From NCBI GenBank assembly GCA_002733385.1, contig NVVO01000008.1, forward strand, positions 13,686-59,514: a stretch of 45,829 bases of DNA, read 5' to 3'. Made by a program: the position numbers and the translations under genes. A model generated the notes under the pieces. That model worked only from the letters and a program-made list of their open reading frames with translations. It was not told where the DNA came from and did not search any database. Shown piece by piece: positions 2,621-36,895 of the stretch. The stretch comes from Robiginitomaculum sp. Its GTDB lineage: Bacteria; Pseudomonadota; Alphaproteobacteria; Caulobacterales; Maricaulaceae. The stretch's first letter is position 1. The number at the start of each line of letters is the position of its first letter.

Positions 2621-3703
<1,083 letters not shown>

Positions 3704-3819
3704 TGGGCGTCTTGATGGGATTCTTGAGGTCGTTGAATGGAAATATATACAAAGACGGGTTTTAGGTAATCCGAAACACTTTGGTGTAAATCGGGTGGGC
3801 GCAAAATCGGGAAGAAGTT

Positions 3820-13058: not shown

Positions 13059-13127
13059 GCTGTGGTGGACAGTTATTGGGCATAATTCACTCTTGACAAC
13101 GGGCGCGTCATTGCAGATTTACGTCCT

Positions 13128-18879: not shown

Positions 18880-18920
18880 CACAGGCGACCAGCTAGGGGG
18901 AGGGAGGCTGGTCGCCTGTG
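18880..18920. terminator. bidirectional stem-loop between convergent genes
   Basis: A perfect 14-bp inverted repeat, cacaggcgaccagc (18880-18893) / gctggtcgcctgtg (18907-18920), encloses a 13-nt loop. It is followed by two copies of gacattcttttt (T-runs). It sits between the acyl-CoA ligase stop and the stop of the 18978 minus-strand gene. Confidence 0.5.
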
Positions 18921-18977
18921 ATTTGCCCGCCAGACATTCTTTTTCCTCCTGACATTCTTTTTGTGGGGGGGGTGTCG

Positions 18978-19649
18978 CTAAACGGTTTTTGCAGAACCTT
19001 TAGCGGAGAGTTTGTTGATCAGGGCTTCGACTTTATCGGTCAGCTCGCCGACACCAAATTCAATATTATCAGATGTCAGCGTGCCGTAAACCTTGCCGCT
19101 AAAGGTATCAACCAACATGGCTTTAGTGGACGCACGAGGGGAAACCATATTATTATCAATAATAAACCCGGTATTTGCCAAAGCTTTGCCGGCAAAACTA
19201 CCCCACTGGGCATCCGCACCCATACCGTAGATCAACACATAATCCATGCGCAGATCAGACGCGGTCATACGAATTTCGTCGAGCTTGTTGTCGCTATCAC
19301 GCCCGCCCATCATGGGGACTTCGGGGATATTGCGAATGAGCGCCGCCGGACTGACGGGTGCAAATGTGATGCTTGAGCGCATATCAAGACTGGCCCAATC
19401 GCGAAGCTCACTATAGGGCGCGGCGATCAAACGTCCCTTGTCGAGCCGGGCAATGCCGATAGTGGCACCGGGTTTAAGGATTGGTGTGTTTGTATTGGGC
19501 GCAAAAGGTCTGGTCAAAGCCGCTTCCTCAATGACCTTGGATACAGGTTTTTGTGTAGATCCAACTTCGCTCATCAATTGGCTTTTAGCATTGATATTTA
19601 CCGCAAAAACGACGGTGGTTAAGGCGGTGGCGATTAAAAGTTTCAGCAT
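18978..19649 (-). CDS. secreted hypothetical protein
   Basis: I start at the ATG at 19649 (MLKLLIATALTTVVFAVNINA), which has a GGAGGG Shine-Dalgarno 7 nt upstream and gives a clean signal peptide. The track ORF extends to 19739. No recognisable catalytic motif. Confidence 0.55.
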   Translation of the reverse strand: MLKLLIATALTTVVFAVNINAKSQLMSEVGSTQKPVSKVIEEAALTRPFAPNTNTPILKPGATIGIARLDKGRLIAAPYSELRDWASLDMRSSITFAPVSPAALIRNIPEVPMMGGRDSDNKLDEIRMTASDLRMDYVLIYGMGADAQWGSFAGKALANTGFIIDNNMVSPRASTKAMLVDTFSGKVYGTLTSDNIEFGVGELTDKVEALINKLSAKGSAKTV

Positions 19650-19934
19650 GATTTTCCCTCCAATTAGGTGTTGTACAAGGGGCAGGTTGCGCACTCGATG
19701 ATTGTTATATGCAGGGTCAATAGGGCGTGAACTTGCCACGACTGTGCTGATTTCAAGATTTTCACGGCCAATTATGGCGGACTTGCGCGTAAATGCGGCG
19801 AAAACCCGAAATAAGGCAAGAAATATGACCCATACCGGAACTGCTTTGGCGCTATGCCGTCAAACTTTTGTTTTAGTAAGTATTTCCTAACCCTGTAGCG
19901 GTTATGGTCTAGCCTAAAAGGACTGGAACTATAT

Positions 19935-21875
19935 ATGCTTGCTTCAACTGAGAACGCCGGGGGGAAACCCAAAAGGATCGTCACTGCCAAATTAGCATTG
20001 AAACATGTAGAGGTCGGGCGGATCATGTCTGTAGGGTCCTCACAGGTCGTAATCGCGGTCAATAAAACAATTATCCGCAACAATCAGTTGCATTTACTTG
20101 AGCTTGGCACAGTTTTGAAAATTCTGACCAATAGCTCTTTGGTTGTGGCCATGGTTTCAAACTTGAAAGTTGGCGCAGCTGATGATGAAGGTATGAATGA
20201 TGGCTGTATTGCGAATTTAAGCATCCTCGGGGAAATATCGACCAATAAGACAACCCGCGAAACTAAATTTTTTAGAGGCGTAAGGACGTTTCCGGTACTG
20301 AACCAGCCTGCGCTGACCATGAAGTCCGACGAGCTTGAAATGATATTTTCTACGGGGGATACACCCAGTATTGCCGTCGGGCGCATGCAACAGGACGAGA
20401 ATATCGTGGCGCGCGTCAAGACCAATGATTTATTGTCCAAACATTTTGCCATTATTGGTTCTACCGGTTCGGGCAAATCTTGTACGGTCGCATTGGTATT
20501 ACAGGCAATTTTGGACGAAAATCCAAATGCCCATATGGTTTTGTTCGACCCACACAATGAATACAGTAAAAGCTTCGGAGACCTTGCCACTGTGATCGGG
20601 CCAAGAGAATTCGATCTACCCATTTGGTTGTTTGATTTCGAAGAAACGGCTGAACTTTTAACTTCCGAAATTCTTGACCATAAGCGCGAGGAGATTGAAG
20701 TCCTGCATGATGTCATTCTTAAAGCAAAACAACTCTATGACCGGGCAAGAGGAGCGAACGGAATGGGCAGTGTCCCTGCCAAAATGGAAAATCTTGAACA
20801 AGAATTACACCGCGCCGCCGCGCATATTTCATTGGATTCGCCGGTTCCCTATAAAATGCAAGATGTGATCAAGTTGCTGGACTTTTATATGGGCCGGTTG
20901 GAAAACTCCGGTAATATAGGCCCGTATAAACGCTTAAAGCGCCGCATTAACAGCCTTATGGCCGACCCTCGCTATCAATTCATTTTTAGAAACCAGGCCG
21001 CCCCGCGCTCCATACAAGACATTACCGGCACTATATTTCGTATTCCGGTGGCGGGCAAGCCAATGTGTATTCTTGACTTTTCCGGCATACCGTCAGGCAC
21101 GATGAATATTGTCGTCTCCGTCGTCAGCCGCTTGGCATTTGAACTGGCCATGTGGAGCCAACGAAAAATTCCTATTCTTTTGGTGTGCGAGGAAGCCCAT
21201 AGATATATCCCGGCCGACAAATCACTGGGATTTGCGGCGACCCGGCGTTCTATTTCGCGCATTGCCAAGGAAGGGCGTAAATACGGCGTGTCCCTGGCAA
21301 TCATTTCCCAGCGGCCATCTGAACTTGAACCTTCAACCTTGTCACAGTGTAGCACGATTTTCTCAATGCGTCTGGGCAATGAACGCGACCAGAACTTTGT
21401 CCGCGCCGCCATTCCGGACGGGGCTGCGGATTTGTTGTCATTTTTACCGTCGCTCGGTACGGCGGAAACCATGGTGTTTGGAGAAAGCGTCAACTTACCC
21501 ATGCGCGTCGTGCTGGATAATTTGGCCGAAGAGCGCCGACCTCACAGCTCCAGCGCCGAATTCACCAAGTTGTGGAATGAAGATGATGTGTCGCCGGCAT
21601 TTATGGCCAATGTGTTTGAAAGCTGGCGAACCCGCACGAAAGTTCAGCCGGAAACTGCGCCCTCAACACAGCCAAACAAACTACATCCACACCCACAAGC
21701 TAGGCTACAGCCTGTATATCCAAATATTGCCAATCCAACTCCAATTTCTGGACAAAGGCTAGGGGTAGCGCAAGGACAAGGGCAAAGTTTAGTCCCCGCG
21801 CCAGTGCAAGAACCAGTCGGGCAAAGCATAAATGTTAAAAAAATGCTGAACCGGGCGTTTCATAGTAATATTTAG
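19935..21875 (+). CDS. HerA/DUF87-type P-loop ATPase with low-complexity Pro/Gln-rich tail
   Basis: 646 aa. Walker A FAIIGSTGSGKS, Walker B-like PILLVCEEAHRYIP, and GRKYGVSLAIISQRPSEL, typical of HerA/FtsK-like DUF87 ATPases. The last 100 aa or so are P/Q-rich. Confidence 0.7.
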   Translation: MLASTENAGGKPKRIVTAKLALKHVEVGRIMSVGSSQVVIAVNKTIIRNNQLHLLELGTVLKILTNSSLVVAMVSNLKVGAADDEGMNDGCIANLSILGEISTNKTTRETKFFRGVRTFPVLNQPALTMKSDELEMIFSTGDTPSIAVGRMQQDENIVARVKTNDLLSKHFAIIGSTGSGKSCTVALVLQAILDENPNAHMVLFDPHNEYSKSFGDLATVIGPREFDLPIWLFDFEETAELLTSEILDHKREEIEVLHDVILKAKQLYDRARGANGMGSVPAKMENLEQELHRAAAHISLDSPVPYKMQDVIKLLDFYMGRLENSGNIGPYKRLKRRINSLMADPRYQFIFRNQAAPRSIQDITGTIFRIPVAGKPMCILDFSGIPSGTMNIVVSVVSRLAFELAMWSQRKIPILLVCEEAHRYIPADKSLGFAATRRSISRIAKEGRKYGVSLAIISQRPSELEPSTLSQCSTIFSMRLGNERDQNFVRAAIPDGAADLLSFLPSLGTAETMVFGESVNLPMRVVLDNLAEERRPHSSSAEFTKLWNEDDVSPAFMANVFESWRTRTKVQPETAPSTQPNKLHPHPQARLQPVYPNIANPTPISGQRLGVAQGQGQSLVPAPVQEPVGQSINVKKMLNRAFHSNI

Positions 21876-21932: not shown

Positions 21933-22238
21933 ATGTATGCGATTATTCGACAACCAGCCCCAGATGCCTTGCAATCAGGCAGTCATGGCTACGAAAAATG
22001 GGTATTGGAGTTCCCCCGTGACCATAAAATTGTCATTGATCCACTGACCGGAAATACAGGTGCTGCGGATATGATGCAGGAGGTGAAACTCAATTTTGAC
22101 AGCAAAGAAGATGCGATTAGCTATGCCAAAGCCAACAGCATCGCTTTTCAATTGCTGGAACGCAAGCGGCATAAACCAAAGGGGCGTTCCTATAGCGAAA
22201 ACTTTGCCTTTGAGCGTAAATTTCCTTGGACGCATTAA
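21933..22238 (+). CDS. NDUFS4-like ETC complex I subunit conserved-region protein
   Basis: 101 aa. WVLEF......DPLTG.TG..DM..QV.L.F.SKEDAI.YA......F pattern of the alphaproteobacterial NDUFS4 (18-kDa subunit) homologues. Confidence 0.75.
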   Translation: MYAIIRQPAPDALQSGSHGYEKWVLEFPRDHKIVIDPLTGNTGAADMMQEVKLNFDSKEDAISYAKANSIAFQLLERKRHKPKGRSYSENFAFERKFPWTH

Positions 22239-22313
22239 AGGGGGACTCACTAAATAATGGACGCATTAAAGAGGGACACACTAAATAATGAACTCATTAA
22301 AGTGTGGACGCAT
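22227..22313 (+). repeat. 31-bp tandem repeat (about 2.8 units) spanning the stop codon of the NDUFS4-like gene
   Basis: tggacgcattaaagggggactcactaaataa (22227-22257), tggacgcattaaagagggacacactaaataa (22258-22288), then tgaactcattaaag and tggacgcatt. The first unit contains the last codons W-T-H-stop of the gene. Confidence 0.8.
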
Positions 22314-22342: not shown

Positions 22343-22419
<77 letters not shown>

Positions 22420-23830
22420 TTACTGTAAATGCATCCATATAATCAAATATCTGCCTTATGCTTACCCGAATAATATATCCGTGTCCGCCTCGCCATAATA
22501 TCGCTCCATCTTTAACCTAAATGTTAAAGTGTTGCGACGACCCGTTGAACTCACAGGGAAAAGCCGACGAAAACCAACTCAACAAAAACGGGCAGCATTC
22601 CCCTTACAAACTTTCGCAAAATGCTACGATAATTTCTGATAGTTCCGCAGGCACATCTTCTTGTAAGAAATGCCCGCCGCCTTTGACGATTTGGTGTGGT
22701 TGACCTTTGCAGCCCGGGATGAGTTTTTGGAAAACTTTGTCGGCGTCCTTGGTTATGGGGTCTTGGTCGGAGAAGCTGGTCAGGAAGGGTTTGTCCCACT
22801 TAGAGAGCACTTTCCACGCTTCAACATTGTCCGCCGCACCGTCCATATGGGGGCTGGTCGGAACGAGCGCAGGGAAAATGCGCGCACCGGCTTTATAGCT
22901 CTCATCAGGATAGGGCGCGTTATAGGCGTCTTTGACACCTTCGCCTAAATCGCTCACCGTCGCGCTGTCAATAATGCTGCCGACTGGAAACTCTGGCACA
23001 ACCTTGGCGAATTCACGCCATTTGGTGAACGCTTCGCCAGGGTCGCGGTCACCCGTTGGCAAGAAAGTATTGGCGGCTATGACGCCTGCAAACCGCTTTG
23101 GATATTTCGTGACAAGCCGCAAGCCGAGTAATCCACCCCAGTCTTGGCAAAACAGAACGGAATTGCTCACATCTAACTGTTCAAACCATTCGTTCATCCA
23201 GCAGACATGCCGCGTATAGCTGTAATCCGATGTCTTAGTCGGCTTATCTGATTTCCCAAAACCGATAAGGTCCGGCGCAATAACTCTGTAACCCGCCGCT
23301 GCGACGGCTTTAATCATACGGCGATAAAGAAATGACCAGCTTGGTTCGCCGTGCATCATAATGACAACACGACCATCCCGCGGCCCTGTGTCAACATAGT
23401 GCAGCCGTAGACCATCACCGACCGTCACATAGTTCGGCTTAAAATCATAATCAGGTAAGTTTTTAAATTGGCTATCAGGGGTACGCAAAGCTTTCATGGG
23501 GGATATCTCATTGTTTTCTACCTATTGCACCTTTGCATAATCGAGAGAGTTTGTAGAGTCTAAATTTTCAAGATTGTGGATGTCTGCTATTGGGGACTTT
23601 GAGACATGTAAAATTTGCATACCGACATTAACACACGTCAGGTAAGACGTGTTGTATGCTGCTTATATGGCTGAAGCAAGATTGTAGTTTTGACACATTT
23701 TTAGTCACACTTTGAGAATTGTATAAAATATACTAATAAATACAATAGCTTATACTATGGGTTGTCCGCCTTCTAAGCAGGGGGTTGTAGGTTCAAGTCC
23801 TACCGGAATCGCCATTACTGTAAATGCATC
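22420..23830. mobile_element. islet 1: about 1.4-kb tRNA-Arg-associated integrated remnant with no integrase
   Basis: Bounded by the intact tRNA-Arg and by an exact 63-bp direct repeat: 22373-22435 equals 23768-23830. The repeat covers the anticodon loop through CCA plus 16 nt. The only gene inside is a haloalkane dehalogenase. Confidence 0.6.
22604..23497 (-). CDS. haloalkane dehalogenase (HLD-I, DhlA/DhmA-like alpha/beta hydrolase)
   Basis: 297 aa, alignable by eye along its length with Xanthobacter DhlA. Shared stretches: RTPD..F.NL..Y.F.PNY, HGEPSWSFLYRRMI (DhlA HGEPTWSYLYRKMI), VIAPDLIGFGKSDKP, nucleophile elbow QDWGG, PYPDESYKAGARIFP, and catalytic His in GGHFLQED. Confidence 0.85.
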   Translation of the reverse strand: MKALRTPDSQFKNLPDYDFKPNYVTVGDGLRLHYVDTGPRDGRVVIMMHGEPSWSFLYRRMIKAVAAAGYRVIAPDLIGFGKSDKPTKTSDYSYTRHVCWMNEWFEQLDVSNSVLFCQDWGGLLGLRLVTKYPKRFAGVIAANTFLPTGDRDPGEAFTKWREFAKVVPEFPVGSIIDSATVSDLGEGVKDAYNAPYPDESYKAGARIFPALVPTSPHMDGAADNVEAWKVLSKWDKPFLTSFSDQDPITKDADKVFQKLIPGCKGQPHQIVKGGGHFLQEDVPAELSEIIVAFCESL

Positions 23831-23835
23831 AATAT
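23686..23835 (+). repeat. att-like repeat copy 2: about 80-bp arm plus tRNA-Arg 3' half
   Basis: The core 23768-23830 is identical to 22373-22435. The arm 23686-23767 (agtttgacacat...cacact...ctaataaatacaatagcttatactatgg) is recognisably homologous to 29656-29737. Confidence 0.8.
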
Positions 23836-23937
23836 GTCTGACCTCACACCGATTACCAATATTATGCTGCGTATTCGGTCTGGCGGAGTCCTGAGCCTCG
23901 GGAATCTGTTTTTCAAGTGCGCCACTAACTTAAATTT

Positions 23938-26178
23938 CTAGTTTTCAGTTGCGCAAGCTGCGCGCGTACATACCGGTACGATTAGCCGAGCGTCGATAAT
24001 GTTGATCACACCATCACCATTCAAATCACATACGTCACCGCACCGACTATCGGCAGTACTCAGGTTTTTGTCCGTGAGGAGTAAATTAATATCATTGCTA
24101 TCAACATCACCATCGCCGTCAATATCACCGCGAACAATATCTGGAACATTATTTACAATGACCGACGTTGTCGCTACGCGGACGAACTTTTCAACGACTT
24201 TTACGTTCGCGGGATCAATACCAGCAAACAAAGATTCCCCCTCATTAATTTGACTGCTCGGAGTTGTATTGACCGTGACGTCGAAGGTATAAGTTCCACT
24301 GCCGTCATAATTGCGAAATTCTGCTGTATAGATACCGTCACCAGCTATAAAATCCCCATTGGTTCCGTCATCAAACAGCGGAATATTTACGGGCCCGCCG
24401 TCAGGACGAATAACCGTTGCCGCAACTGCGCCGTTCGTGACCGCGATACCCTCAAATTGTGGGGTCGCTTCTATGATTATCGGGGCGGGAAAGACAATAT
24501 TTTCATCCCGGACACTCGCAAACAGAGCCCCCTTGCCACCGTCCGCAAACGATAAAAATTCCGCTCTGCCATCCGACACGGCATTCGCGGTAAATTCGGC
24601 CATCCATTCACCTGCTGCCGGGCTGGAAATCGTGAACTCAACGGCATTCCCCACATCATTCCGAACAACACCGCCGGAAGCCGTTACATCTGTACCCGCC
24701 GGGTCTAACAGTTTAATTGAGAAGTCATCTGAAGTTTGGGCGCGTGTAAAAATTACCGTAATCGTACTCACGTTATTTTCCACGAAAAGCGGAAAAGATT
24801 GAACTTCCGTATTTTGAAACTGAAGCGTGGGTTGTTGGGCCAATATTCCCTGGTTTGAGGCTTCGGCTGCCAGGCGAGCAAATTGCACTAGCAATTGAAA
24901 ACCATTCTGAACCTGAAAAAATTCTCCTCCGGTTTGTGTTCCGATTGTTTGTAAAGTCGACAATCCAGAACTCGATAGCCCACTGCCGATAGCAACCGAA
25001 ATAACGGCAACCCCTTCATTTTTTATCGACGGGATCACGCTTATGGGATTGGTTCCAGTGTTATGGTCTCCGTCACTGAACAGGATAATTAACTCGTTGC
25101 ACGATCTGGATGTTTGAGAAGTGAGTTGAGTTAAACCTGCCTGCAAACCACCTCCTATATTCGTCAACCCACTAGCGACTAGACTATTTGCGGCAGCATT
25201 CACGCTAGCAACATGTGCAGGTGTCGCCAAAGCAAGGTTAGTGTTAACACCCGCTGAAGAGGAGAATGAAGCCAAGCCTACCGAGTCTTGCGCTTTCAAT
25301 ATATTGGTAAATAGGGTTACACCCTGCTTGGCAAAACCAATACGATTGTCGGTCTGCATACTCCCGGATCGGTCGACAACCAGCATCGTTTTCAAGTTGC
25401 CTGATGCATCCTCGAAAGTGACTGTGTGTGCCGCGGGAGCTGCAGACACAGGTAATGCTTTCGGGGCTATAGCCGGGTATTTTGATTTTGCGATGGTTTC
25501 CCAATCTGACTCATTATTATTAATTGAACTTTGAAATGTATCCCGGTCTGGGTCGTGGTTTGATTTGACGCTCAATTCATTGAGCGTGTACGTTGTACCG
25601 TTCCCATTTGGGCCGCGACCACCTCGCGTAAAATAATTATCCATCAGCGAGTAATTCAATGTCGCTGTCTCAGCGCTGGCAGGCGCATTCTCGGCGTTCC
25701 CCATCGGACCTGAGTATTCGTCAGCGATACTATAGGCATGGTGAACATGTTCATGAGCAATTGTGTAGGAGTCGCCATCTACGCCACTTTTAGCGTTGAA
25801 ATTAGAGTCATAATACAAATTAACATGCTCGCCGCGTGTGCCGTATTTACCGAGTGTTGCGAAAGCTCTGCCGGAACCCGAATTTATCCAGTACTCTGCC
25901 GCTTTTGAAGCGCCGCTATCGTTGATGACACGAATGTTTCCAAATCTGTGCTGATTATCCGTAGCGTCAGCTAAAATTTGACTTCCAGAATTAAAACGTT
26001 CTTTTATGCGTTTAATTTGCGCATCAGAGGCTTTGAATCTTACAGATACGCAAAAATTGAAATGTCCATTACTGGCATCAAATTCACCGGTTCCGGCATT
26101 CGCATGGCCTGTGCCAAGCGGTGATATAATTGCCAGAACGGCAATCGCCGACACGAATGTGAAAAACTTGGACATCAT
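23938..26178 (-). CDS. secreted CLCA-like zinc metalloprotease / von Willebrand A protein with C-terminal dockerin
   Basis: Start at the ATG at 26178 (MMSKFFTFVSAIAVLAIISPLGTGHANA signal peptide) with AGGAG 7 nt upstream. HEHVHHAYSIADEY has the same spacing as the CLCA N-terminal protease motif HEWAHLRWGVFDEY. VWA MIDAS residues are VVDRSGSM ... GLTNIG ... FSDGD. Beta-rich domains follow, including a DDGTNGDFIAGDGIY motif. The last 65 aa are two dockerin repeats (GDIDGDGDVDSNDINLL and CDLNGDGVINIIDARLI). Confidence 0.75.
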   Translation of the reverse strand: MMSKFFTFVSAIAVLAIISPLGTGHANAGTGEFDASNGHFNFCVSVRFKASDAQIKRIKERFNSGSQILADATDNQHRFGNIRVINDSGASKAAEYWINSGSGRAFATLGKYGTRGEHVNLYYDSNFNAKSGVDGDSYTIAHEHVHHAYSIADEYSGPMGNAENAPASAETATLNYSLMDNYFTRGGRGPNGNGTTYTLNELSVKSNHDPDRDTFQSSINNNESDWETIAKSKYPAIAPKALPVSAAPAAHTVTFEDASGNLKTMLVVDRSGSMQTDNRIGFAKQGVTLFTNILKAQDSVGLASFSSSAGVNTNLALATPAHVASVNAAANSLVASGLTNIGGGLQAGLTQLTSQTSRSCNELIILFSDGDHNTGTNPISVIPSIKNEGVAVISVAIGSGLSSSGLSTLQTIGTQTGGEFFQVQNGFQLLVQFARLAAEASNQGILAQQPTLQFQNTEVQSFPLFVENNVSTITVIFTRAQTSDDFSIKLLDPAGTDVTASGGVVRNDVGNAVEFTISSPAAGEWMAEFTANAVSDGRAEFLSFADGGKGALFASVRDENIVFPAPIIIEATPQFEGIAVTNGAVAATVIRPDGGPVNIPLFDDGTNGDFIAGDGIYTAEFRNYDGSGTYTFDVTVNTTPSSQINEGESLFAGIDPANVKVVEKFVRVATTSVIVNNVPDIVRGDIDGDGDVDSNDINLLLTDKNLSTADSRCGDVCDLNGDGVINIIDARLIVPVCTRAACATEN

Positions 26179-26203
26179 GATTGTGCTCCTCAAAATTTAC
26201 GAT

Positions 26204-27055
26204 CTATGGTTGTCGGACTTTAGCATATTCAAAAATACTGAATTGCACTAAACCCGTATCAAATCTAAACATCCCTTCTTTAATTTTTATTCGGTTTATT
26301 GCCCGACCGGAATGTTCGAAAGGAATAAAAATACGAGGCTTATGCAAGCAGGCCTCTAGTGCCGTATTTCCGACAATAGTTTCCAAAGTTCGTTGTTTGA
26401 TGAGACTGTCGGAATTAATCCCTTTGGCACGTCGCGAGCTAACGGTTTCGCACCGCAGTGCGGCATTGACGACGGAAGAGGAGGCGGTGTTTGGCAATTC
26501 TTGCATGTCCCTAAATACGTCTAAAAAATCGTGGATTTGCTTGGATTTAGCGAGGTTCAAACTGCGCATGGAAGCCAAAGCATTGGAAGCGAAATGTGCA
26601 AAATGCACAGTATGAATATCTCCTTCAACCACTCCTGTCGGACGCTTGGCGACCACCATCTCCTTGTTCGTCGCATCGGTCCAGGTGGATAGATAAATCT
26701 GTGCAAGTTCAGGAGTAATCATTTTGTACCGAATGTCTGAAATTGTCAGGCCATTTGGTTGATAGGCGACGATCTGAACACAACCCGTATCTGCAATACT
26801 TATCTGGCGAGCGGTAAAGTCAAGAAGAGGTTTATGATTGAGAATTAGGGTTTTCTTCGGTGCAGGTGAACGCAAGCAATCGGATACTATCCCCTGCAAA
26901 GCCGGTTCGGTTCTCTGGGCGCTAGTAATGGAACTGGCCATGCTGGGTCGACAAGAAACAAGAAACAAGCCAACAAATATAGTTTTCACTATGCTTGGCG
27001 TGCCCAATTTAATTCTGCAGATGAGACCCCGCGCAATATGAGAAAACAATTTCAT
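26204..27055 (-). CDS. hypothetical lipoprotein/secreted protein (operon member)
   Basis: Start at the ATG at 27055 (MKLFSHIARG...), 4 nt after the upstream stop. Hydrophobic segment IFVGLFLVSC (possible lipobox). About 250 aa with no motif I recognise. Its stop lies 25 nt upstream of the dockerin-protein start. Confidence 0.5.
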   Translation of the reverse strand: MKLFSHIARGLICRIKLGTPSIVKTIFVGLFLVSCRPSMASSITSAQRTEPALQGIVSDCLRSPAPKKTLILNHKPLLDFTARQISIADTGCVQIVAYQPNGLTISDIRYKMITPELAQIYLSTWTDATNKEMVVAKRPTGVVEGDIHTVHFAHFASNALASMRSLNLAKSKQIHDFLDVFRDMQELPNTASSSVVNAALRCETVSSRRAKGINSDSLIKQRTLETIVGNTALEACLHKPRIFIPFEHSGRAINRIKIKEGMFRFDTGLVQFSIFEYAKVRQP

Positions 27056-27059
27056 TGTA

Positions 27060-27557
27060 TTACTCAAACTGAACATCGGTGGAGACCGTCAAATAGGATT
27101 CCTTATCGGAGCTAGACTCTATATCGCGGTAGGTCATTTCCCATTTTAGCGGCATCGTTTCGCTCGATTCGATTAAACCGTCGACGATAGAATTTAAGAT
27201 GATGGCTCCTGGTGCCGTTTTCACCACATTTTCAGGCAGGTTCGAAAAAGTAATATCGCTTGATGTAAATTGCATGAATTCTGGAATCTCACGGAGAAAC
27301 AATTTGAAGTCTTTAATGTTTGTATTCGACGTTTTTTCTACAAGGACATCGTAAGTGTATTGTTCTGGTTTGGTTCCGACGCCACCTATGAATTTCAAAG
27401 ATATCTTCAGAGAGAGTGGCTGCAATACGACTGGCGGCGGAGCTTGAATAACAGGTGCAATGGGTGTTTCAGCCCCACCACCACCGCAGGCGGAAGTCAA
27501 ACCTCCAACTACAATCAAAATCCCCATCTTTAATAAATCAAAGTTTTTCACAATCAT
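27060..27557 (-). CDS. small lipoprotein (operon member)
   Basis: 165 aa. Lipobox GGLTSAC followed by a GGGG/Pro-rich linker (APVIQAPPPVV) and a beta-rich domain of about 110 aa. No recognisable family. Confidence 0.55.
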   Translation of the reverse strand: MIVKNFDLLKMGILIVVGGLTSACGGGGAETPIAPVIQAPPPVVLQPLSLKISLKFIGGVGTKPEQYTYDVLVEKTSNTNIKDFKLFLREIPEFMQFTSSDITFSNLPENVVKTAPGAIILNSIVDGLIESSETMPLKWEMTYRDIESSSDKESYLTVSTDVQFE

Positions 27558-27608
27558 CCCTTTGTCTTAATCCGTTAATTTTAACGCAAAAGTGCATGCA
27601 CAACAGAA

Positions 27609-29075
27609 TTAGAACACGATACGTAGCGTCGCTGAACCAATGTGTTGTGTTGTGTTGGAGCCAAACAGCCCTTTATATCCAAAATTTATGCTGGTATCTT
27701 GGCGTATGCCTATACTAATCCCCGGTTCTATCGTGAACATATCACTGTCTATCAAATCGAACTGGGCTCTTATGTCCGGCACCGTCGCCGCCAAATTATC
27801 TGCGAATAAAGCGTTTATTTGAAATTCATCACTAGATGTACTTTGCCAACCCAACCCGAGATGAGGGCGAACTTTAGCACTACCTGACCCGCTGTGCGTT
27901 TTACTGAAATCTACTTTAATATATACTACCGTGCTATTATCAGATGATTGTTGAGCGAAAACCGTCAATACATCTGCACCGGTTTCTTTAAGATCATCGA
28001 TTTCGGTTTTGACCGCGGCTACTGAGGCGGATGGTATAACTGTAATTCCGTTCATTTGCGTTTCATAACTTGCGCGCAACATTACGCTGGTGCTGGTGAC
28101 ATTAAATGGAGTTCTCGAGACCATTCCTCCCAGATTTGCATGTGTAATCCATAGCGCTCCGTCACTATTTGTGCGCGTATAACTTCCGGTCACTACGAAG
28201 GGGTCAAAGTTCCACCCCACAACACCGTTAAACGAAAATCTATCTCCGTCATCAATGGAACTGGTATTCATATAGTTTGTATTAAAACTGCCGGCTGAGA
28301 TACCACCTCCGAGCATCAATCCGCCTTTTAATTGAACCAATCCGCCGCCGAAATAACTTGTAGAATTTTCGTTTACGGCAATTGTGTTGAATTTGGAATC
28401 CGCATAACTACCGCCTACGAACAAACAGGCCTTGTTCCCCGAATTACCGCTGAGTTTTTTTATGAATCTATGATCGCATGACTGGGTAAGATCGGCAAAA
28501 GCAATATTTGCCATCAGGGTTCCGCTGAGGGGTTGAGCAAATTCATCAACTGAAGTGCGGTCAACCAGCATGACCGTCACCCCGTTCAAGATCGGGCTAA
28601 GAGCATTCCCGTCCGCATCAGCAAAGGCGAGGCCCGATAGTGAAAAATTTGCCGCTCCCACATTTTGCGCCAGAAACGTCAGTGACCCCAATGGGAGGGT
28701 ATTGCTTTGCGCGGAATTTAAGTTGGCGGCGCTCTCAAGAGAAACCTCAAAAATTCCCAATTGACCTAGCATCGTTGCATCGGTTCCAAATAGAGAATTT
28801 GCCGGATTTGCACTTAATGCAGGACCGAGACTGTTTCCGAGCAACGACACCAAATTGCTGTCAAACAAAAGTAAAAAGTCATAAGCCCCCAAAGACGGCA
28901 CCCCTGACGCTGTCAAATTCGAAATCAGTAGGGATAAGTCGAAAGTTGTTCCAACTCTGACATATTGTACCTGGGAGTCTAACGATATGGTTTGAGCATT
29001 TGCAGGTAAATATCCTATACAAGTCGAAATCGCCGTCGCAATTACAGCCTTTTTTATGAAATCCGGTTTTTTCAC
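27609..29075 (-). CDS. autotransporter outer-membrane protein with a cohesin-like passenger domain
   Basis: Signal peptide ...STCIGYLPANA/QT. Residues 31-174 or so fit the cohesin pattern (VRVGTTFDLSLLISNL..SLGAYDFLLLFDSNLVSLL ... LGSLTFLAQNVGAANFSLSGLAFADADGNAL). The C-terminal 300 aa or so have alternating beta-strand character and end GSATLRIVF (terminal aromatic), as in autotransporter beta-domains. The GTG at 29075 lies 6 nt from GGAGG. The track start is the GTG at 29081. Confidence 0.65.
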   Translation of the reverse strand: MKKPDFIKKAVIATAISTCIGYLPANAQTISLDSQVQYVRVGTTFDLSLLISNLTASGVPSLGAYDFLLLFDSNLVSLLGNSLGPALSANPANSLFGTDATMLGQLGIFEVSLESAANLNSAQSNTLPLGSLTFLAQNVGAANFSLSGLAFADADGNALSPILNGVTVMLVDRTSVDEFAQPLSGTLMANIAFADLTQSCDHRFIKKLSGNSGNKACLFVGGSYADSKFNTIAVNENSTSYFGGGLVQLKGGLMLGGGISAGSFNTNYMNTSSIDDGDRFSFNGVVGWNFDPFVVTGSYTRTNSDGALWITHANLGGMVSRTPFNVTSTSVMLRASYETQMNGITVIPSASVAAVKTEIDDLKETGADVLTVFAQQSSDNSTVVYIKVDFSKTHSGSGSAKVRPHLGLGWQSTSSDEFQINALFADNLAATVPDIRAQFDLIDSDMFTIEPGISIGIRQDTSINFGYKGLFGSNTTQHIGSATLRIVF

Positions 29076-29214
29076 AAACACCCTCCACCCATGGACGCAT
29101 TGTATTTACCGACGGGGTCAAAGTGAAGCGCCCTTCCAATTTGACATTTCTTCTCTTAACATAAACTCCATAAATTGCAAGCGGATTTACAAATTCTGTC
29201 ACCGAGAACTAGGC

Positions 29215-29650
29215 GGGAACGTGCCGGACGCAACCAAAAGAGGCGGCTTTCGCCAAAAGCTGGTTGCACATGATCTTTTGGAAATTTTACTGGGCGAGGT
29301 CAATCGCCAACTTGAACAAATGCACATCATCATGACTGAGGGGCGGGCAATATCATCGACGCCACATCAATTGAGGCGTCCTGGTCTGGCTCCGGCAAAG
29401 GCGCAGATGGCGGGCCCAGCCTTGATCCTGATGCAGGCTGGCACGTCAAGTCTACAGCAAAGGCAAGCGCAAACCCACCTATGGTTACTCTGTTCATACC
29501 GGGGCCAACGAAGATGGTTTCATCCATCGCCAGACCGTACTACAGGAAATGCCATGATAACAGCAAGCGCCATACGCTATTGCTGGGCGGCGAGGCCGGC
29601 CTATTACCCGATAAAACTGCTATACGGCGCTTAAAAAGGTCTTTTCTGAT
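29215..29650 (+). pseudogene. IS5-family DDE transposase fragment (truncated at both ends, at least 3 frameshifts)
   Basis: Three frames together give GNVPDATKRGGFRQKL..LLEILLGEVNRQLEQ.....EGRAI / IDATSIEASWSGSGKGADGGPSLDPDAGWHVK / GKRKPTYGYSVHTGANEDGFIHRQTV / HDNSKRHTLLLGGEAGLLPDKTA. This matches the IS5-type core (VPD.T..FR, G.I.DAT.I.A, DPDA.W..K, YGY..H, TTGNAHD, ADK.Y). There are no inverted repeats and no N- or C-terminal regions. Confidence 0.7.
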
Positions 29651-29655
29651 ACGAA

Positions 29656-29786
29656 AGTTTGACACATCTTGAACCACACTCTGTAAAAATAGCTAATAAA
29701 CATGAATAAATACAACAACTTAGAATATGGTCAATCTGCCTTCTAAGCAGGGGGTTGTAGGTTCGAGTCCTACCTAAATCGCCATT
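29656..29786 (+). repeat. att-like repeat copy 3: arm plus degenerate tRNA-Arg 3' half
   Basis: 29736-29786 reads ctgccttctaagcagggggttgtaggttcGagtcctaccTAaatcgccatt, with three mismatches to the tRNA. The arm 29656-29735 is homologous to 23686-23767. It abuts the metC stop codon. Confidence 0.75.
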
Positions 29787-32061: not shown

Positions 32062-34374
32062 TCACACCCGGCCATAGTTCAAGGCCGCGTCGCACAGGAG
32101 ATAGGCCCGGCCAGTTTCACTTTCGAGTTTTGTGCGGATAGCTTCGCGGCTGACACCCAATTGTTCAAGTGAGCGGTCAAAACGGGTCGCGAATTTGATG
32201 GTTTTCTCACTTAGATCATCATTAACCGCCAAAGATTTTACTAAATGTTCCACCGGATTTTTTAGTCGTGCCTTGACGCATTTACTCATGGCCTCATGAC
32301 CGCTTACGGCCCGGGCATTGCTGGCTTCGATGATGCAACCGTCGTCGACAACCGCATTTACCGATAATCCCAATTGGGCCAAATCAGCCAACAAAACATC
32401 ATCATCGCTTTTGCTTTGTGTTTCGGATACGGCTTTGGGTTTTGACGGGGCGACAATATCAAGACTGGAAGGGGTGTTAGCTTTCGCCTTTGATTTGAAA
32501 ATATTGCGAAACAATCCGCCTGATTTAGATTTGGTATTGCGCTCATTGTCAATTGGGACAGACCTTCGGATGGTTACATCAGCTATATCTGGCAAGTTTG
32601 ATGCTTGCGGCGAGTTTTGCGCGGGTGTTGGTACGTTTGCATCTAAGGCAGGCTCTTCATTTTCTCTCAAAGATGGTTCATTTTTTCTCAAAGAAGGCTC
32701 AGGCGGAATTCTTTCGACATTTTGCCGCAATATATCAGGATCAATCTGGCCATCCACGAGTTCAAGCGGTGCTTGCTCATCAGGCTTTGGAACAGTGGTG
32801 TCCTCGATCATGACATCAAGTTTCTCGGAAGCTGTCTTGGGGGTAGGGGAGAGTTTTCTGTCTTTATCTTCCTGAGTAATTTCAATGAGAGGCTTGAGCC
32901 TGAGCCTGGTGCGCCTCCCAGATTTAGGCCGCTTCTTTTTTCCGACATGACCGGGCGGGCTATTATCCGTATCCGTATCCGTATCCTTATCTTTCTCGCT
33001 TTCATCCGGAACAAGCTCTAAGGACCTAGGTTGTTTATTACCAATTCGGCTTTGCAGTCCGGCCATTTCTTGCTCAATACGGGCGATTTCCTTACGGGTT
33101 AACTCAAGACTGTCTTGCACACGTTGGGCCGCCATATCGCTGATGCTTTGGGCATGTTCCGTGGAATATTGCACCATATCGCGCATTTCTGCGAACCGGG
33201 CCTTGACGGCATTGTCCGCCAAAGATGCAGCCTCGGCCAAAGCTTCAATGGTTTGCTTGCCCGTGCGCGAGGCTTCCGTAAGGCTTTCTGCGCTGGCTTG
33301 GGCAGACAGGGACAAGTCGCGCATTTTGCTCAAACGCTCTTGCATGCTGGCCCCCAAGGATGTTTGCTCATCGCGCAAATGCTCTATCATGGCCGTCAGC
33401 TCACCGGCATGTTTTTTGTAAACAGTATCCAATTCCTCGGAGCGTTGGCGAATAATGTCCCCCAGGCTCTTGATATCTTCGTGGCTGGCACTGAGTGTCG
33501 AGGCGGCTTGAACCGTGTTGGAACGGACAATATCGGACGCTGAATTGATCTTGGCAGTGGCACCTTCGACGCTGATCCGGGCTTCCTTGATTTTTTGCTC
33601 GGCAATCTGCACGGCTTTGGCCAGATTGTCCGTGTGCATGGTCAAGGTGTTGGACAGGCTTTCCATGCTCAAGTCCAGGGTTTGTGTCATATCGATCAGG
33701 GTTTGTTTCTGGACATTGACGCTCTGATTAATGGTGGCAACGGTTTCGCGCACATCACTGTTTGCGGTTTGCATGGTTTCGGCCTGAATTTGCACAGCGT
33801 CGTCCATTGCACCGAGGCGCATAAGGGCGGTTTCAAGCCTGTTGTCCACATGGTCAATTTGCGCCGCAATGGTTTCCGCCATGATTTTACTCTTTCCAAT
33901 GACGGTTTTATCCGGCGTGGTCAGGGCGCTGGCCGCCAGATTAAGGGCATGTGCCTGGCTAGACAGTTTCGCCAATTGTTTGAGACAATATGCCGTCACA
34001 ATAATCAGCAAGATCGGGCCAAGCACCAACACTGCAATGGAGGCCCACTGTAAAGGTGTATTGGTTTGCCAACTATTGGCGACATCCAGAACAATAAACA
34101 ATAATGCACCAACAATGATCAACCACAACAAACTTGCACCAAGCACTGCCCGTTTAATCCAGCCAAAATCAGGGCCGTCGGGCATGGTGGCTTGCATAGG
34201 TTCTCTTTGTTGTGTTGGTATGGGTTTTAAAATATCTACCAGATCTAGGCTATCAATTTCTTTGTCAGGTGTTTTCGCTACATGTGCCCTGCTTATACTG
34301 CCTCTATCTTCAATGCTCCGGGCTTCAATGCCCCCGGCTTCAATACTGGTTATTTTGATTTTTCTATCGACCAC
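32062..34374 (-). CDS. membrane-anchored long coiled-coil protein
   Basis: 770-aa ORF with a GTG start that is uncertain. Two TM helices (LGASLLWLIIVGALLFIVL; IAVLVLGPILLIIVTAYCL) are followed by about 300 aa of heptad-like Ala/Gln/Glu-rich sequence, a charged disordered linker with DTDTDTD, and a compact C-terminal domain of about 110 aa. Confidence 0.6.
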   Translation of the reverse strand: MVDRKIKITSIEAGGIEARSIEDRGSISRAHVAKTPDKEIDSLDLVDILKPIPTQQREPMQATMPDGPDFGWIKRAVLGASLLWLIIVGALLFIVLDVANSWQTNTPLQWASIAVLVLGPILLIIVTAYCLKQLAKLSSQAHALNLAASALTTPDKTVIGKSKIMAETIAAQIDHVDNRLETALMRLGAMDDAVQIQAETMQTANSDVRETVATINQSVNVQKQTLIDMTQTLDLSMESLSNTLTMHTDNLAKAVQIAEQKIKEARISVEGATAKINSASDIVRSNTVQAASTLSASHEDIKSLGDIIRQRSEELDTVYKKHAGELTAMIEHLRDEQTSLGASMQERLSKMRDLSLSAQASAESLTEASRTGKQTIEALAEAASLADNAVKARFAEMRDMVQYSTEHAQSISDMAAQRVQDSLELTRKEIARIEQEMAGLQSRIGNKQPRSLELVPDESEKDKDTDTDTDNSPPGHVGKKKRPKSGRRTRLRLKPLIEITQEDKDRKLSPTPKTASEKLDVMIEDTTVPKPDEQAPLELVDGQIDPDILRQNVERIPPEPSLRKNEPSLRENEEPALDANVPTPAQNSPQASNLPDIADVTIRRSVPIDNERNTKSKSGGLFRNIFKSKAKANTPSSLDIVAPSKPKAVSETQSKSDDDVLLADLAQLGLSVNAVVDDGCIIEASNARAVSGHEAMSKCVKARLKNPVEHLVKSLAVNDDLSEKTIKFATRFDRSLEQLGVSREAIRTKLESETGRAYLLCDAALNYGRV

Positions 34375-35071: not shown

Positions 35072-36895
35072 TTAAGGCCAAACAACCCGATAAACCAGCA
35101 ATTGATTGCTCGTATCGGTTTGAATTGGTTGTAACCAGTCAGGGGAATCACCATCACTTAATCTTGCCAACATGCCATTTGGCCCGTATTTTATCATCAA
35201 ACTGGTCTCATTACTGGCCCGACACGCAATCACATAATCTGCCTGCATAGCGATTACGGCATTTTTCGCAATTACTTCGCTCTCAATAAACATGTCAAGG
35301 GCCGCTAATATGCCGCTGGTGTTACGGTGATAGGGCGCAGAGGTAACGCTAAGTTTGGTGAAGTGTAATATGGGAGCCCCTAAATCAATTTGGGTCAGGG
35401 CCGTGCCAACAGGCAGGGTATTAAGAGCGGCCAAGTGGGTCTGGCTCGTACAGGATTGCGCCATATTGCCGGTATTTTCTGCTATGGTTTTTTCCTTGGT
35501 ATTTGCCCCCAAGATAAGCGGTATGGTCACCGGTGCCATGGCAATCATCAAAAACGCGCTAACCAATAGCTTTATGGGTGCAGGTTTAAATCGTCCGGCC
35601 CATTGTAGGGCATTGACCAATAAAAATGTTGCCAGAGGAATTGATAGTGCCGTGGCCAAAAACAATAACCTTGCTTGTAATAGTCCGGCGAGTAGGGATA
35701 AAATAACAAATAATATCAAAGTTCTGTGTGAAAGTCCTAACGATTTATTTTGTTTGCGCGCCGTGATAATATATCCCAATATGGCTAGAATGGGTAAAAT
35801 AATGGCCGCAATGCTAGCAACAAAATCCACTTGTGAAAATTGGATAAAATTCCCCGCCTCTGCAACATTGGAAAGCCAAATTTCTACCAAGCGGCTATCT
35901 AGGCCTGCATAGGGGCCTTTAAGGCATTGCGGGTAGATGGCAATGGTTATGATCAAGGCGACAACGCCTAAAAGACCCGCCACAAGCAATCGGAGCAAGG
36001 GCGTTTTAAGCTTGTGGTCCAGATAGCTTAGCCCCCACAAAACAACGGCGACCAGCAATGTCAATTGCAGATAAACGACGGATAAGGCATCACAGTTTGG
36101 GATAAACCAGTTTCTCGGCGTGGTGCTGACCAAAAGGCTAATGAAGGTTGTGAGCGCCAGACCCAGCCCGAAAAACCGCATTTTTTGTTTTGCCGCATGT
36201 TCAGAAAACACCCAGATCGAGACAACTGCAATACAGGCGGCAGCAACATAGGGGGCGCTTTCAATACCGATATAAAGACCAAGTCCGCATAAAACCCCTG
36301 CGTATATCAATGCTTTAGGATTATTTTCTGATGTAACTATAAGCCAGATCGTAGCCAAGGCCAAAACGATTTGCAGTCCGTGATGATCTATTCGCCCCAT
36401 GCCAAATTGCGCCAAGAGACCAAATGATAAAGCCAGCATAAAAGCGGCAATCAGCGGTGTCGCCCGGTGGTTTGATATTCTCCCTGCAATGGCTGTCGCC
36501 AAATATAGATAGACTAGCAATAAAATGCTTGGATAGGCGATAATTGTCACCAGTTCCGCCTTGGCCTGACCAAGCATCGGGGTCAAAATCTTAATTGGCC
36601 CGCCGACCAATATATCAGAAATACGTGACCAGTGAGAATTCAGCGGCTCTACCGGGTTGAGCCGGTATTGGTGCAAATCGAACCAGCTTTGTCCACCTAG
36701 CCAATCGCGGATTTCCGCCATGCGCATATAATCATCATTGCCAAATAATTCGCCCCGTAATATTTTTGCGCCGTACCGGCTCCAGCTGACAAATAATAGC
36801 AAAAACCAGACCAGAAAAACGCTGCCGTGGCGCTCAATTAAATATTGAGAGCGCGCGGACAATTCGCCGGGCTTATTTTGGGGTGATTTACTCAA
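35072..36895 (-). CDS. large polytopic membrane protein, possibly a GT-C-fold glycosyltransferase
   Basis: 607 aa, at least 12 predicted TM helices plus a C-terminal soluble domain of about 130 aa. The first loop carries an acidic motif, GNDDYMRMAEIRDWLGGQSWFDLHQYRLNP, reminiscent of the GT-C first periplasmic loop. The TTG start overlaps the upstream TGA (TTGA). Confidence 0.4.
   Translation of the reverse strand: MSKSPQNKPGELSARSQYLIERHGSVFLVWFLLLFVSWSRYGAKILRGELFGNDDYMRMAEIRDWLGGQSWFDLHQYRLNPVEPLNSHWSRISDILVGGPIKILTPMLGQAKAELVTIIAYPSILLLVYLYLATAIAGRISNHRATPLIAAFMLALSFGLLAQFGMGRIDHHGLQIVLALATIWLIVTSENNPKALIYAGVLCGLGLYIGIESAPYVAAACIAVVSIWVFSEHAAKQKMRFFGLGLALTTFISLLVSTTPRNWFIPNCDALSVVYLQLTLLVAVVLWGLSYLDHKLKTPLLRLLVAGLLGVVALIITIAIYPQCLKGPYAGLDSRLVEIWLSNVAEAGNFIQFSQVDFVASIAAIILPILAILGYIITARKQNKSLGLSHRTLILFVILSLLAGLLQARLLFLATALSIPLATFLLVNALQWAGRFKPAPIKLLVSAFLMIAMAPVTIPLILGANTKEKTIAENTGNMAQSCTSQTHLAALNTLPVGTALTQIDLGAPILHFTKLSVTSAPYHRNTSGILAALDMFIESEVIAKNAVIAMQADYVIACRASNETSLMIKYGPNGMLARLSDGDSPDWLQPIQTDTSNQLLVYRVVWP

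Follow-up and report, generated by a model that had tools for sequence, protein, structure and literature searches.

The window analyzed here is a 45,829-nucleotide stretch of contig NVVO01000008.1 from Robiginitomaculum sp., a genus of the Alphaproteobacteria in the order Maricaulales. It contains a four-gene operon on the minus strand, numbered here in the direction of transcription. Gene 1 encodes a passenger of cohesin fold fused to an autotransporter domain, and gene 4 encodes a predicted secreted protein, referred to as the cargo, that ends in a dockerin module. Together the two genes form a candidate system for holding an exported protein at the bacterial surface.

The four open reading frames (ORFs) span 29081-23938, all in the same direction. 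The first spacer is 51 nucleotides, the second is 4 nucleotides (or a 17-nucleotide overlap), and the third is 10-25 nucleotides. This is the layout that an earlier note on the DNA, made from the sequence alone, had described as a co-directional minus-strand operon with gaps of 4-51 nucleotides. The gene 1 product is identical in four independent metagenome contigs, and the same four-gene order is present in the two contigs that are long enough to hold it. The operon is therefore not an assembly artifact. A Robiginitomaculum sp. metagenome-assembled genome encodes the gene 4 product with 100% identity, as COA91_04880. Promoter and terminator scans of the window gave results no better than those for shuffled sequence. 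The features of the operon and of its immediate surroundings are listed in Table 1.

Table 1. Features of the operon and of the islet that carries it. Positions are those of the window; residues are numbered from the longest form of each ORF.
Feature	Position	Strand	Length or basis
Gene 1, cohesin-autotransporter fusion	27609..29081	-	490 aa from GTG; 488 aa from 29075 in public calls
Gene 1, signal peptide, residues 1-29	28995-29081	-	hydrophobic N-terminus ending in ANA, followed by Q; read from sequence
Gene 1, cohesin-fold passenger, residues ~30-175 (~145 aa)	28557..28994	-	AlphaFold2/Foldseek and family profile
Gene 1, linker, residues 176-223	28413-28556	-	
Gene 1, Autotransporter beta-domain (barrel), residues 224-490	27612..28412	-	PF03797
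Gene 2, exported protein, possibly lipoprotein (LTSAC)	27060..27557	-	165 aa; no Pfam or NCBIfam match
Gene 3, exported protein, LVSC lipobox-like	26204..27076	-	290 aa; 283 aa from 27055
Gene 4, secreted cargo (predicted)	23938..26193	-	751 aa; 746 aa from 26178
Gene 4, signal peptide, residues 1-33	within 23938..26193	-	
Gene 4, HEHVHHAYSIADEY, HExxH...DEY zinc-protease motif of CLCA type, residues 147-160	25714..25755	-	
Gene 4, VWA domain, residues 269-435; MIDAS D274, S276, S278, T344, D374	24889..25389	-	Pfam
Gene 4, choice-of-anchor X motif, residues 604-641	24271..24384	-	NCBIfam NF041940, 42.9 bits, cut-off 25
Gene 4, dockerin module, residues 687-751; two Ca-loop/helix repeats and four Cys, C-terminal CTRAACATEN	23941..24135	-	
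tRNA-Arg(TCT), integration target	22343..22419	+	ARAGORN
tRNA-Arg 3'-end direct repeat, left boundary of operon islet	23768..23816	+	exact over 35 nt tested
tRNA-Arg 3'-end direct repeat, right boundary of operon islet	29738..29786	+	3 mismatches in 35 nt tested
IS5-family transposase pseudogene, between operon 5' end and islet boundary	29230..29620	+	at least 3 frameshifts

Domain composition of genes 1 and 4

Gene 1 combines the elements of a type Va autotransporter in one polypeptide, with an N-terminal signal peptide, a passenger, and a C-terminal beta-domain of family PF03797 that closes on an aromatic residue. PF03797, which the earlier note had expected on this product, matches residues 224-469 with 53.7 bits (cut-off 26, E 3.3e-14) and covers model positions 8-254 of 255. 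The C-terminus reads ...LRIVF, the last residue being the aromatic F. The signal peptide was read from the sequence by eye, and the N-terminal segment aligns with the N-termini of homologues. A phmmer search of the barrel against the PDB returned only noise.

The passenger was modeled with AlphaFold2 using an alignment of 136 sequences. The model is mainly beta with 11 strands, and has a predicted local distance difference test score (pLDDT) of 93.9 and a predicted template modeling score (pTM) of 0.86. When it was compared with the PDB by Foldseek, the best 50 matches were all cohesins (E 1.4e-9 to 2e-6, probability 1.00, template modeling (TM) score 0.64-0.84). These include type I, type II, and non-cellulosomal cohesins, the last from Clostridium perfringens and Archaeoglobus fulgidus.

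An exhaustive HMMER search for relatives of the passenger yielded 739 sequence clusters at E<=1e-3, of which 39 reach E<=1e-10, with a best E of 1.6e-15. The window ORF matches the hidden Markov model (HMM) of the family at E 7e-46, and the positions conserved in the family are kept in the window cohesin. Pfam Cohesin (PF00963) matches 27 of the 39 closest relatives (best E 4.3e-8). The family profile also matches cohesins in the PDB, namely Ruminococcus flavefaciens ScaC (5lxv_A, E 0.0019) and C. perfringens NagJ (2jh2). A word-indexed protein search with the passenger gave no match. As modeled, the passenger fold is that of a cohesin and its family is cohesin-related, with a window sequence too diverged for Pfam; the kinship was detected only through the exhaustive HMMER search, the family profiles, and the structure model, the direct sequence tests having failed. 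The cohesin passenger proposed by the earlier note thus stands by fold and by family, but the direct PF00963 match expected there is absent. The note had named the lack of any cohesin HMM or structural match as grounds for rejecting the idea; a structural match was found for the passenger itself, and cohesin HMM matches were found for its relatives.

The gene 4 product contains, in order, a signal peptide, a zinc-protease motif, a VWA domain, a beta-rich region with a choice-of-anchor X motif, and a dockerin. In an alignment of 16 members of the cargo family, H147, E148, H151, and D158 of the HEHVH...DEY motif are invariant and E159 is nearly so. The residues of the metal ion-dependent adhesion site (MIDAS) in the VWA domain are invariant in the same alignment. 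The VWA domain scores 61.5 bits with Pfam, and its best PDB match is the VWA domain of human CLCA1 (6pyo, E 5.9e-9). The hCaCC/CLCA model TIGR00868 gives a partial match of 103 bits over residues 205-643, far below its cut-off of 900. The Pfam CLCA N-terminal family (PF08434) scores 12.4 bits against a cut-off of 25.6, and reaches 27.3 bits in the homologue P0107. The previous assignment as a CLCA-type protease/VWA protein is borne out, as a CLCA-like protein with an HExxH motif and a VWA domain, by these matches and by the conserved motifs. Among the Pfam families that had been expected on gene 4, VWA was recovered, while the CLCA N-terminal family and Dockerin_1 fall below their cut-offs. 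Protease activity of this bacterial CLCA-like cargo is predicted from the motif.

The dockerin end of gene 4 reads DIDGDGDVDSND...DLNGDGVINIID. Both calcium repeats that had been claimed for it can be read, as tandem loop and helix segments (DIDGDGDVDSND+INLLL and DLNGDGVINIID+ARLIV) with 12-residue loops of the DxDxDG type. The window dockerin was aligned with those of four related loci. The loop residues are invariant in this subtype, the second helix carries a DAR motif, and a cysteine-rich tail of the form CTRxxC is present in most of the five members. Compared with the PDB, gene 4 matched the dockerins 5lxv_B and 2y3n_B at E ~3e-3. With the profile of the five-member subtype, the match to 2y3n_B improved to E 3.5e-8 and covered both repeats; more than eight further dockerins were matched as well. 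Calmodulin-type EF-hands ranked below the dockerins, with the exception of one calmodulin entry (5.2e-5) that falls among them. A scan with the dockerin loop pattern found no second dockerin motif anywhere in the window.

Pairing of cohesin and dockerin genes

A dockerin-bearing neighbor is present in all nine cohesin-family loci at which the C-terminus of the neighbor can be read, the window included. Among the nine, the cargos are of at least five unrelated types, the genes come in two orders, and the anchors are of three kinds. The proteins P0002 and P0004, the two closest relatives of the cargo (47-50% identity), are the only ones that share its cysteine-rich dockerin. Directly downstream of each is a gene for a cohesin-like protein of about 200 residues with a PEP-CTERM-type tail; the similarity of this protein to the window passenger has an E of 1e-10 to 1e-11.

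Further loci were retrieved by cohesin similarity alone (L020/L021, L023, L025, L026, L027, and L028). In L020/L021 the neighbor is a purple-acid-phosphatase-like metallophosphoesterase with a Dockerin_1 match of 27.9 bits. In L023 it is a He_PIG repeat protein (Dockerin_1 29.6 bits), and the cohesin of this locus scores 28.5 bits, above threshold. The neighbor in L025 is a truncated gene with a dockerin C-terminus. L026 has an ExeM/NucH extracellular nuclease (positions 2675-5581, NF033681 645 bits) that ends in ...LCTRARCATN, and the gene after it is of the cohesin-like PEP-CTERM kind. In Shewanella, ExeM has a GlyGly-CTERM anchor where the L026 nuclease has its dockerin. The neighbor in L027 is a 278-residue protein with a Pfam dockerin on record, and that in L028 is a 1207-residue protein with C-terminal dockerin-like loops, divergent from a scaffoldin-like protein with five cohesins.

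The reverse comparison was made at 13 cargo-family loci that are without this dockerin subtype, consisting of P0003 (L002) and 12 genome loci from Acidobacteriota, Opitutia, Kuenenia, Parabeggiatoa, and others. No cohesin-like ORF was found at any of the 13 within the DNA examined, up to 10 kb on each side. Across the fetched loci, about 380 kb in all, L017 was the only place outside the paired loci where the dockerin loop pattern was seen. The C-terminal modules of the cargo family vary and include DUF11, Calx-beta, PPC, FG-GAP, a type IX secretion system (T9SS) signal, a PEP-CTERM-like tail, and the dockerin. This variety fits the choice-of-anchor X match of gene 4.

Recurrent co-location of this kind is strong guilt-by-association for a cognate receptor-ligand pair, as predicted from gene neighborhoods. 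The earlier note had proposed a dedicated cohesin-dockerin pair from the window itself, and this inference is strengthened by a neighboring dockerin of the same subtype at every readable locus.

A typical member of the cohesin family is about 200 residues long and consists of a signal peptide, a cohesin-like domain, and a PEP-CTERM tail. The tail was detected by a simple pattern in 124 of the 150 best clusters, and Pfam PEP-CTERM matches 18 of the 39 closest passenger relatives. Gene 1 of the window has no PEP-CTERM; the autotransporter beta-domain occupies that position. Autotransporter fusions are present in three of the 150 best clusters, namely the window protein, P0122, and P0237. P0122 is 39% identical to gene 1 over the full length, and P0237 matches both Pfam Cohesin (29.8 bits, cut-off 24.1) and Autotransporter (202 bits). 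Judging from these sequences, the window holds a rare outer-membrane-barrel variant of a general cohesin-dockerin cassette that is mostly PEP-CTERM-anchored. The PEP-CTERM majority had not been foreseen; the autotransporter form described for the window stands, as a rare member of a larger family.

In the P0122 locus (L018, 4178-5596) the next gene encodes a lipoprotein with a DUF1194/VWA domain, and its C-terminus is cut by the contig end. Full-length homologues of this lipoprotein (P0271, P0273, and P0274) contain HExxH, so that a VWA domain and a metalloprotease motif are found together again.

Other ends and domain numbers were also seen in the family. P0185 (387 residues) has a C-terminus of Gly/Asp-rich RTX-like repeats in place of PEP-CTERM, which may be another option for anchoring or secretion. 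The scaffoldin-like protein of L028 (8001-10934) is 977 residues long and has five cohesin-like modules; its 1207-residue neighbor lies at 3537-7160. Further multi-cohesin members are P0201, with six modules, and P0240, with four.

Genes 2 and 3 have no match in Pfam or NCBIfam. Cargo-family genes are directly preceded by a homologue of gene 3 in L001, L002, and L003, and also in the Acidobacteriota/Opitutia loci L006, L007, L008, L011, and L012. The gene 3 family HMM matches these homologues at E 1e-26 to 1e-35, with 7.6e-6 in L012. Since these homologues are also present at Acidobacteriota and Opitutia loci without a dockerin, gene 3 and the CLCA-like gene form the older core, to which the cohesin/dockerin pair is an add-on. 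On this distribution, gene 3 is a conserved, predicted partner of CLCA-like proteins in bacteria, whether or not a cohesin/dockerin pair accompanies them. A homologue of gene 2 was found at the same operon position only in L001, the closest relative (BLASTP E 2.5e-5; also by HMM). A chaperone or inhibitor role for genes 2 and 3 is only a guess.

Locus L002 (8842-16080), from a distant relative, contains a gene 3-like ORF and a dockerin-less cargo, split into 86 and 708 residues, beside Cys_Met_Meta_PP and PALP genes. This neighborhood resembles the right flank of the window (cysK/metC), in the opposite orientation, with no tRNA, and at about 65% nucleotide identity. The arrangement may represent a recurrent insertion neighborhood. 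The locus may also mark the ancestral, non-island position of the cargo, a reading that is weakened by the missing tRNA, the orientation, and the level of identity.

Predicted tethering and the tRNA-Arg islet

The operon is probably a non-cellulosomal cohesin-dockerin tethering system adapted to the Gram-negative outer membrane. Binding between the two modules, with the cargo thereby held on the outside of the cell, is likely, as read from the modules and their co-occurrence. Gene 1 would be exported by the Sec pathway, its beta-domain would insert in the outer membrane, and its single cohesin of 145 residues would be passed to the surface in the manner of type Va autotransporters. The gene 4 product would be exported by Sec as a soluble protein and would fold with disulfides, with the dockerin as its only anchor. 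Its route across the outer membrane would probably be type II secretion. The dockerin would bind the displayed cohesin in a calcium-dependent manner and hold the protease/adhesin at the surface against loss to sea water. In the proposed cassette a cargo-dockerin gene is followed by a cohesin-anchor gene, and in the window, as in two further lineages, an autotransporter barrel would have taken the place of the usual PEP-CTERM/exosortase anchor. The cassette would have arrived on the decayed element integrated at the tRNA-Arg.

Several observations weigh against this reading. The window passenger does not match Pfam Cohesin PF00963 even at E<=1, and its phmmer search against the PDB returned no cohesin and only a spurious phage tail protein (E 0.024). 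Dockerin_1 (PF00404) scores 22.4 bits on gene 4 (E 1.5e-4), which is 0.5 bit below the gathering cut-off of 22.9. The whole gene 1 product has a pLDDT of 31 in single-sequence AlphaFold2, too low to read the number of strands or the linker helix of the barrel, which is assigned by Pfam. The cohesin and dockerin genes of the window are not adjacent, as two genes lie between them. L017, a locus of the cargo family, has a dockerin with no cohesin nearby. The dockerin status of the truncated neighbor in L018 is unreadable, and the four homologues of this neighbor are either incomplete or have other C-terminal ends. Finally, no secretion-system family was found among 20 other large window ORFs scanned, all of them 3' of position 13100, and no feature of the window accounts for the passage of a folded ~75 kDa cargo through the outer membrane.

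The failed Pfam Cohesin match and the lone dockerin of L017 are also what would be seen if the two modules did not bind each other. The passenger would then be a general adhesin or glycan-binding beta-sandwich, and the dockerin-like tail a calcium-stabilized module of the EF-hand type. The dockerin profile does match calmodulin EF-hands (E 1e-4 to 1e-3), and a review by Peer et al. (2009) reportedly describes many genomes with dockerins or cohesins lacking an evident partner. Against this, the best PDB match of the dockerin profile is a true dockerin with both repeats covered. The dockerin neighbor recurs at all of the readable loci across unrelated cargos, while gene order and anchor vary, and cargo homologues without this dockerin have no cohesin-like gene nearby. 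Without some direct link in function, such a pattern of co-occurrence would be difficult to account for, and two modules that do not bind are quite unlikely.

Binding could also take place without stable display. The pair may be periplasmic or transient, acting in secretion or quality control, or the passenger may be cleaved and the complex released to the matrix or to vesicles. The lack of a cargo export route among the scanned ORFs would agree with this, as would the PEP-CTERM signal on the cohesins of most relatives, because PEP-CTERM proteins end up associated with the matrix and are not strictly cell-bound. Many autotransporter passengers are likewise cleaved. However, an autotransporter barrel is unable to carry a folded partner of 75 kDa, so assembly in the periplasm would block export of the passenger. 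The four conserved cysteines of the dockerin suggest a design for an oxidizing extracellular setting, and engineered autotransporter-cohesins stay cell-bound and capture dockerin proteins from outside. A periplasmic or released complex is considered unlikely, and display at the surface remains the preferred reading.

The operon is carried by an islet at the tRNA-Arg gene (Table 1). Three copies of the tRNA-Arg 3' end were found, compared with none in shuffled sequence, and the operon lies between copies 2 and 3. The approximately 45 nucleotides that precede the repeats at 23768 and 29738 share 82% identity. The copies delimit two tandem islets, 22420-23767 and 23817-29786, and the second holds the operon and the IS5-family pseudogene. 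When the frames of this pseudogene are stitched together, they match an IS5 transposase from a Marinomonas algicola plasmid (tblastn, 58.9% identity, E 3e-38); no Pfam match was obtained for the remnant. No integrase ORF is present between the tRNA-Arg repeats, and the GC content of the islet (0.42-0.48, versus about 0.48-0.52 outside) shows only a weak dip. The tRNA-Arg islet claimed by the earlier note therefore holds by its boundary repeats, and not by an integrase or a marked change in GC content. The element is old and decayed, and the four operon ORFs are intact.

Decay of the element raises the possibility that the locus is a mobile-element remnant in which some genes, for example the autotransporter, no longer function. 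The missing integrase, the frameshifted transposase that abuts the operon, and the mismatches in the boundary repeat are in line with this, and so is the modest autotransporter score of gene 1 beside that of P0237. The genes themselves give a different picture. All four ORFs are tightly spaced, and identical proteins occur in four metagenome assemblies. The cohesin keeps the conserved positions of its family, as does the cargo (HExxH, MIDAS, and 80 invariant columns), and gene 1 aligns with P0122 from end to end. A non-functional remnant is very unlikely.

In the first and smaller islet, directly after the tRNA-Arg, the sole gene is that of an alpha/beta-hydrolase (22604-23497, minus strand; Abhydrolase_1 79.5 bits). 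The repeat that closes this islet copies the tRNA 3' end exactly, together with 16 nucleotides of the downstream sequence, and for this reason the islet looks more recent than the operon islet. Between an NDUFS4-like gene and the tRNA-Arg, a 31-nucleotide unit (TGGACGCATTAAAGGGGGACTCACTAAATAA) is tandemly duplicated at 94% identity (22227-22288). The window flanks contain housekeeping genes (NDUFS4-like, cysteine synthase, a Cys/Met PLP enzyme, and acyl-CoA ligases). A HerA-like DUF87 ATPase (19935-21875, 134 bits) has a long C-terminal tail rich in proline and glutamine, and overlapping candidate ORFs lie upstream of it at 18918-19739. Two large ORFs of 770 residues (32062-34374) and 607 residues (35072-36895) have no Pfam match. 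They stand in a row with an Rce1-like/CPBP intramembrane protease (36892-38127), and the same arrangement is present in contig L029.

Relation to known systems

Pairing of cohesin and dockerin is textbook knowledge for the cellulosomes of Gram-positive anaerobes. The closest likeness to the window is found in the anchoring cohesins of Clostridium thermocellum (OlpA, OlpC, and SdbA; PDB 3ul4, 4dh2, and 2bm3), where a single cohesin fixed to the envelope captures a secreted protein with a C-terminal two-repeat dockerin; in the window such capture is predicted. The passenger model superposes on these Gram-positive anchoring cohesins (3ul4_A, E 1.4e-9, TM 0.70-0.77) at an identity of only 13-19%. 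The differences lie in the anchor, the host, and the cargo. Cellulosomal anchors use SLH repeats or sortase, whereas the window, from a marine alphaproteobacterium that lives aerobically, has an outer-membrane autotransporter barrel. In place of a carbohydrate-active enzyme or a scaffoldin, the cargo is a CLCA-like protease/VWA protein, and its dockerin differs from cellulosomal ones by four cysteines and the CTRxxC tail. A cellulosome-like reading of the operon was rejected on the grounds of its single cohesin, the lack of a carbohydrate-active enzyme, and the nature of the cargo.

Non-cellulosomal cohesins are the second point of comparison. Those of C. perfringens NagJ/GH84C (2jh2, 2w1n, and 2o4e) and A. 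fulgidus (2xdh) are among the best Foldseek matches of the passenger (ranks 2, 4, and 5) and among the best profile matches. These examples are Gram-positive or archaeal and have no outer-membrane anchor, and the window family is a distinct clade, mostly PEP-CTERM-tailed, with a conserved cassette of two genes for which the literature searched gave no description. To our knowledge, cohesin- and dockerin-like modules outside cellulosomes are mostly orphans without known partners or roles. Such modules were reportedly catalogued by Peer et al. (2009).

The design predicted for gene 1 has been built artificially. An A. fulgidus cohesin autodisplayed on Escherichia coli captures a dockerin-tagged protein (PMC9705933), and scaffoldins displayed through Ag43 in Pseudomonas putida likewise capture dockerin-tagged proteins (bioRxiv 10.1101/2020.05.13.093500). 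The architecture of these constructs is identical to that of gene 1, with a signal peptide, a cohesin, and an autotransporter barrel to which a dockerin enzyme is docked. Since they work in E. coli and P. putida, the topology read in the window is workable. The engineered systems are synthetic and their dockerin proteins are added from outside, whereas the window pair is natural, lies in one operon, and belongs to a cell that must export the cargo itself.

Three protein groups are related to parts of the operon. Among PEP-CTERM/exosortase-sorted proteins, the passenger is homologous to the large family of cohesin-like proteins with a PEP-CTERM end, an autotransporter domain being in place of PEP-CTERM in gene 1. 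In the cargo, as in hCLCA1, an HExxH...DEY motif precedes the VWA domain with its MIDAS, and a beta-rich region comes after; unlike CLCA proteins, the cargo falls far below the TIGR00868 cut-off and below the PF08434 threshold, and it has a dockerin. Choice-of-anchor families (NF041940 and others) swap their C-terminal modules as the cargo family does, and the dockerin is one more anchoring option among these. The sorting signals of those families are read by a sortase-like enzyme, whereas the dockerin of the window would be a plug that needs a separately encoded socket.

In the literature searched, no paper was found that brings together cohesin, dockerin, and PEP-CTERM, or dockerin and PEP-CTERM. 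A cohesin domain or dockerin together with exosortase was found only in a review of anaerobic methanotrophic (ANME) archaea. Among the papers listed for cohesin, dockerin, and autotransporter, those with both modules in the title or abstract concerned engineering or were reviews of it, and none describes a natural pair. The mechanism is known; what is apparently new is the way of anchoring, the kinds of cargo, and a cassette that is conserved in Gram-negative bacteria.

The evidence also leans, by a little, toward the window being one case of a widespread and hitherto undescribed Gram-negative system for tethering exoenzymes. The anchors of the small cohesin socket would be interchangeable (usually PEP-CTERM/exosortase, at times an autotransporter barrel or a multi-cohesin, scaffoldin-like protein), and the cargos would be encoded by neighboring genes with dockerins of the CTRxxC type. 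If this is true, it would be a general form of exoenzyme retention that parallels the cellulosome and serves the scavenging of protein, DNA, and phosphate. It suggests how marine and soil Gram-negative bacteria may keep costly exoenzymes at the surface.

At the level of the family, a defined cohesin clade is paired, gene by gene, with a defined dockerin subtype in diderm bacteria. A large family of PEP-CTERM proteins, currently without a function, thereby gains candidate receptor-ligand pairs. In the window, evolution would have come upon the design of cohesin and autotransporter that synthetic biology devised for display on cells. If binding occurs as proposed, the family would offer natural, orthogonal, disulfide-stabilized pairs for the Gram-negative envelope. 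The operon may also help to uncover what CLCA-like proteins do in bacteria.

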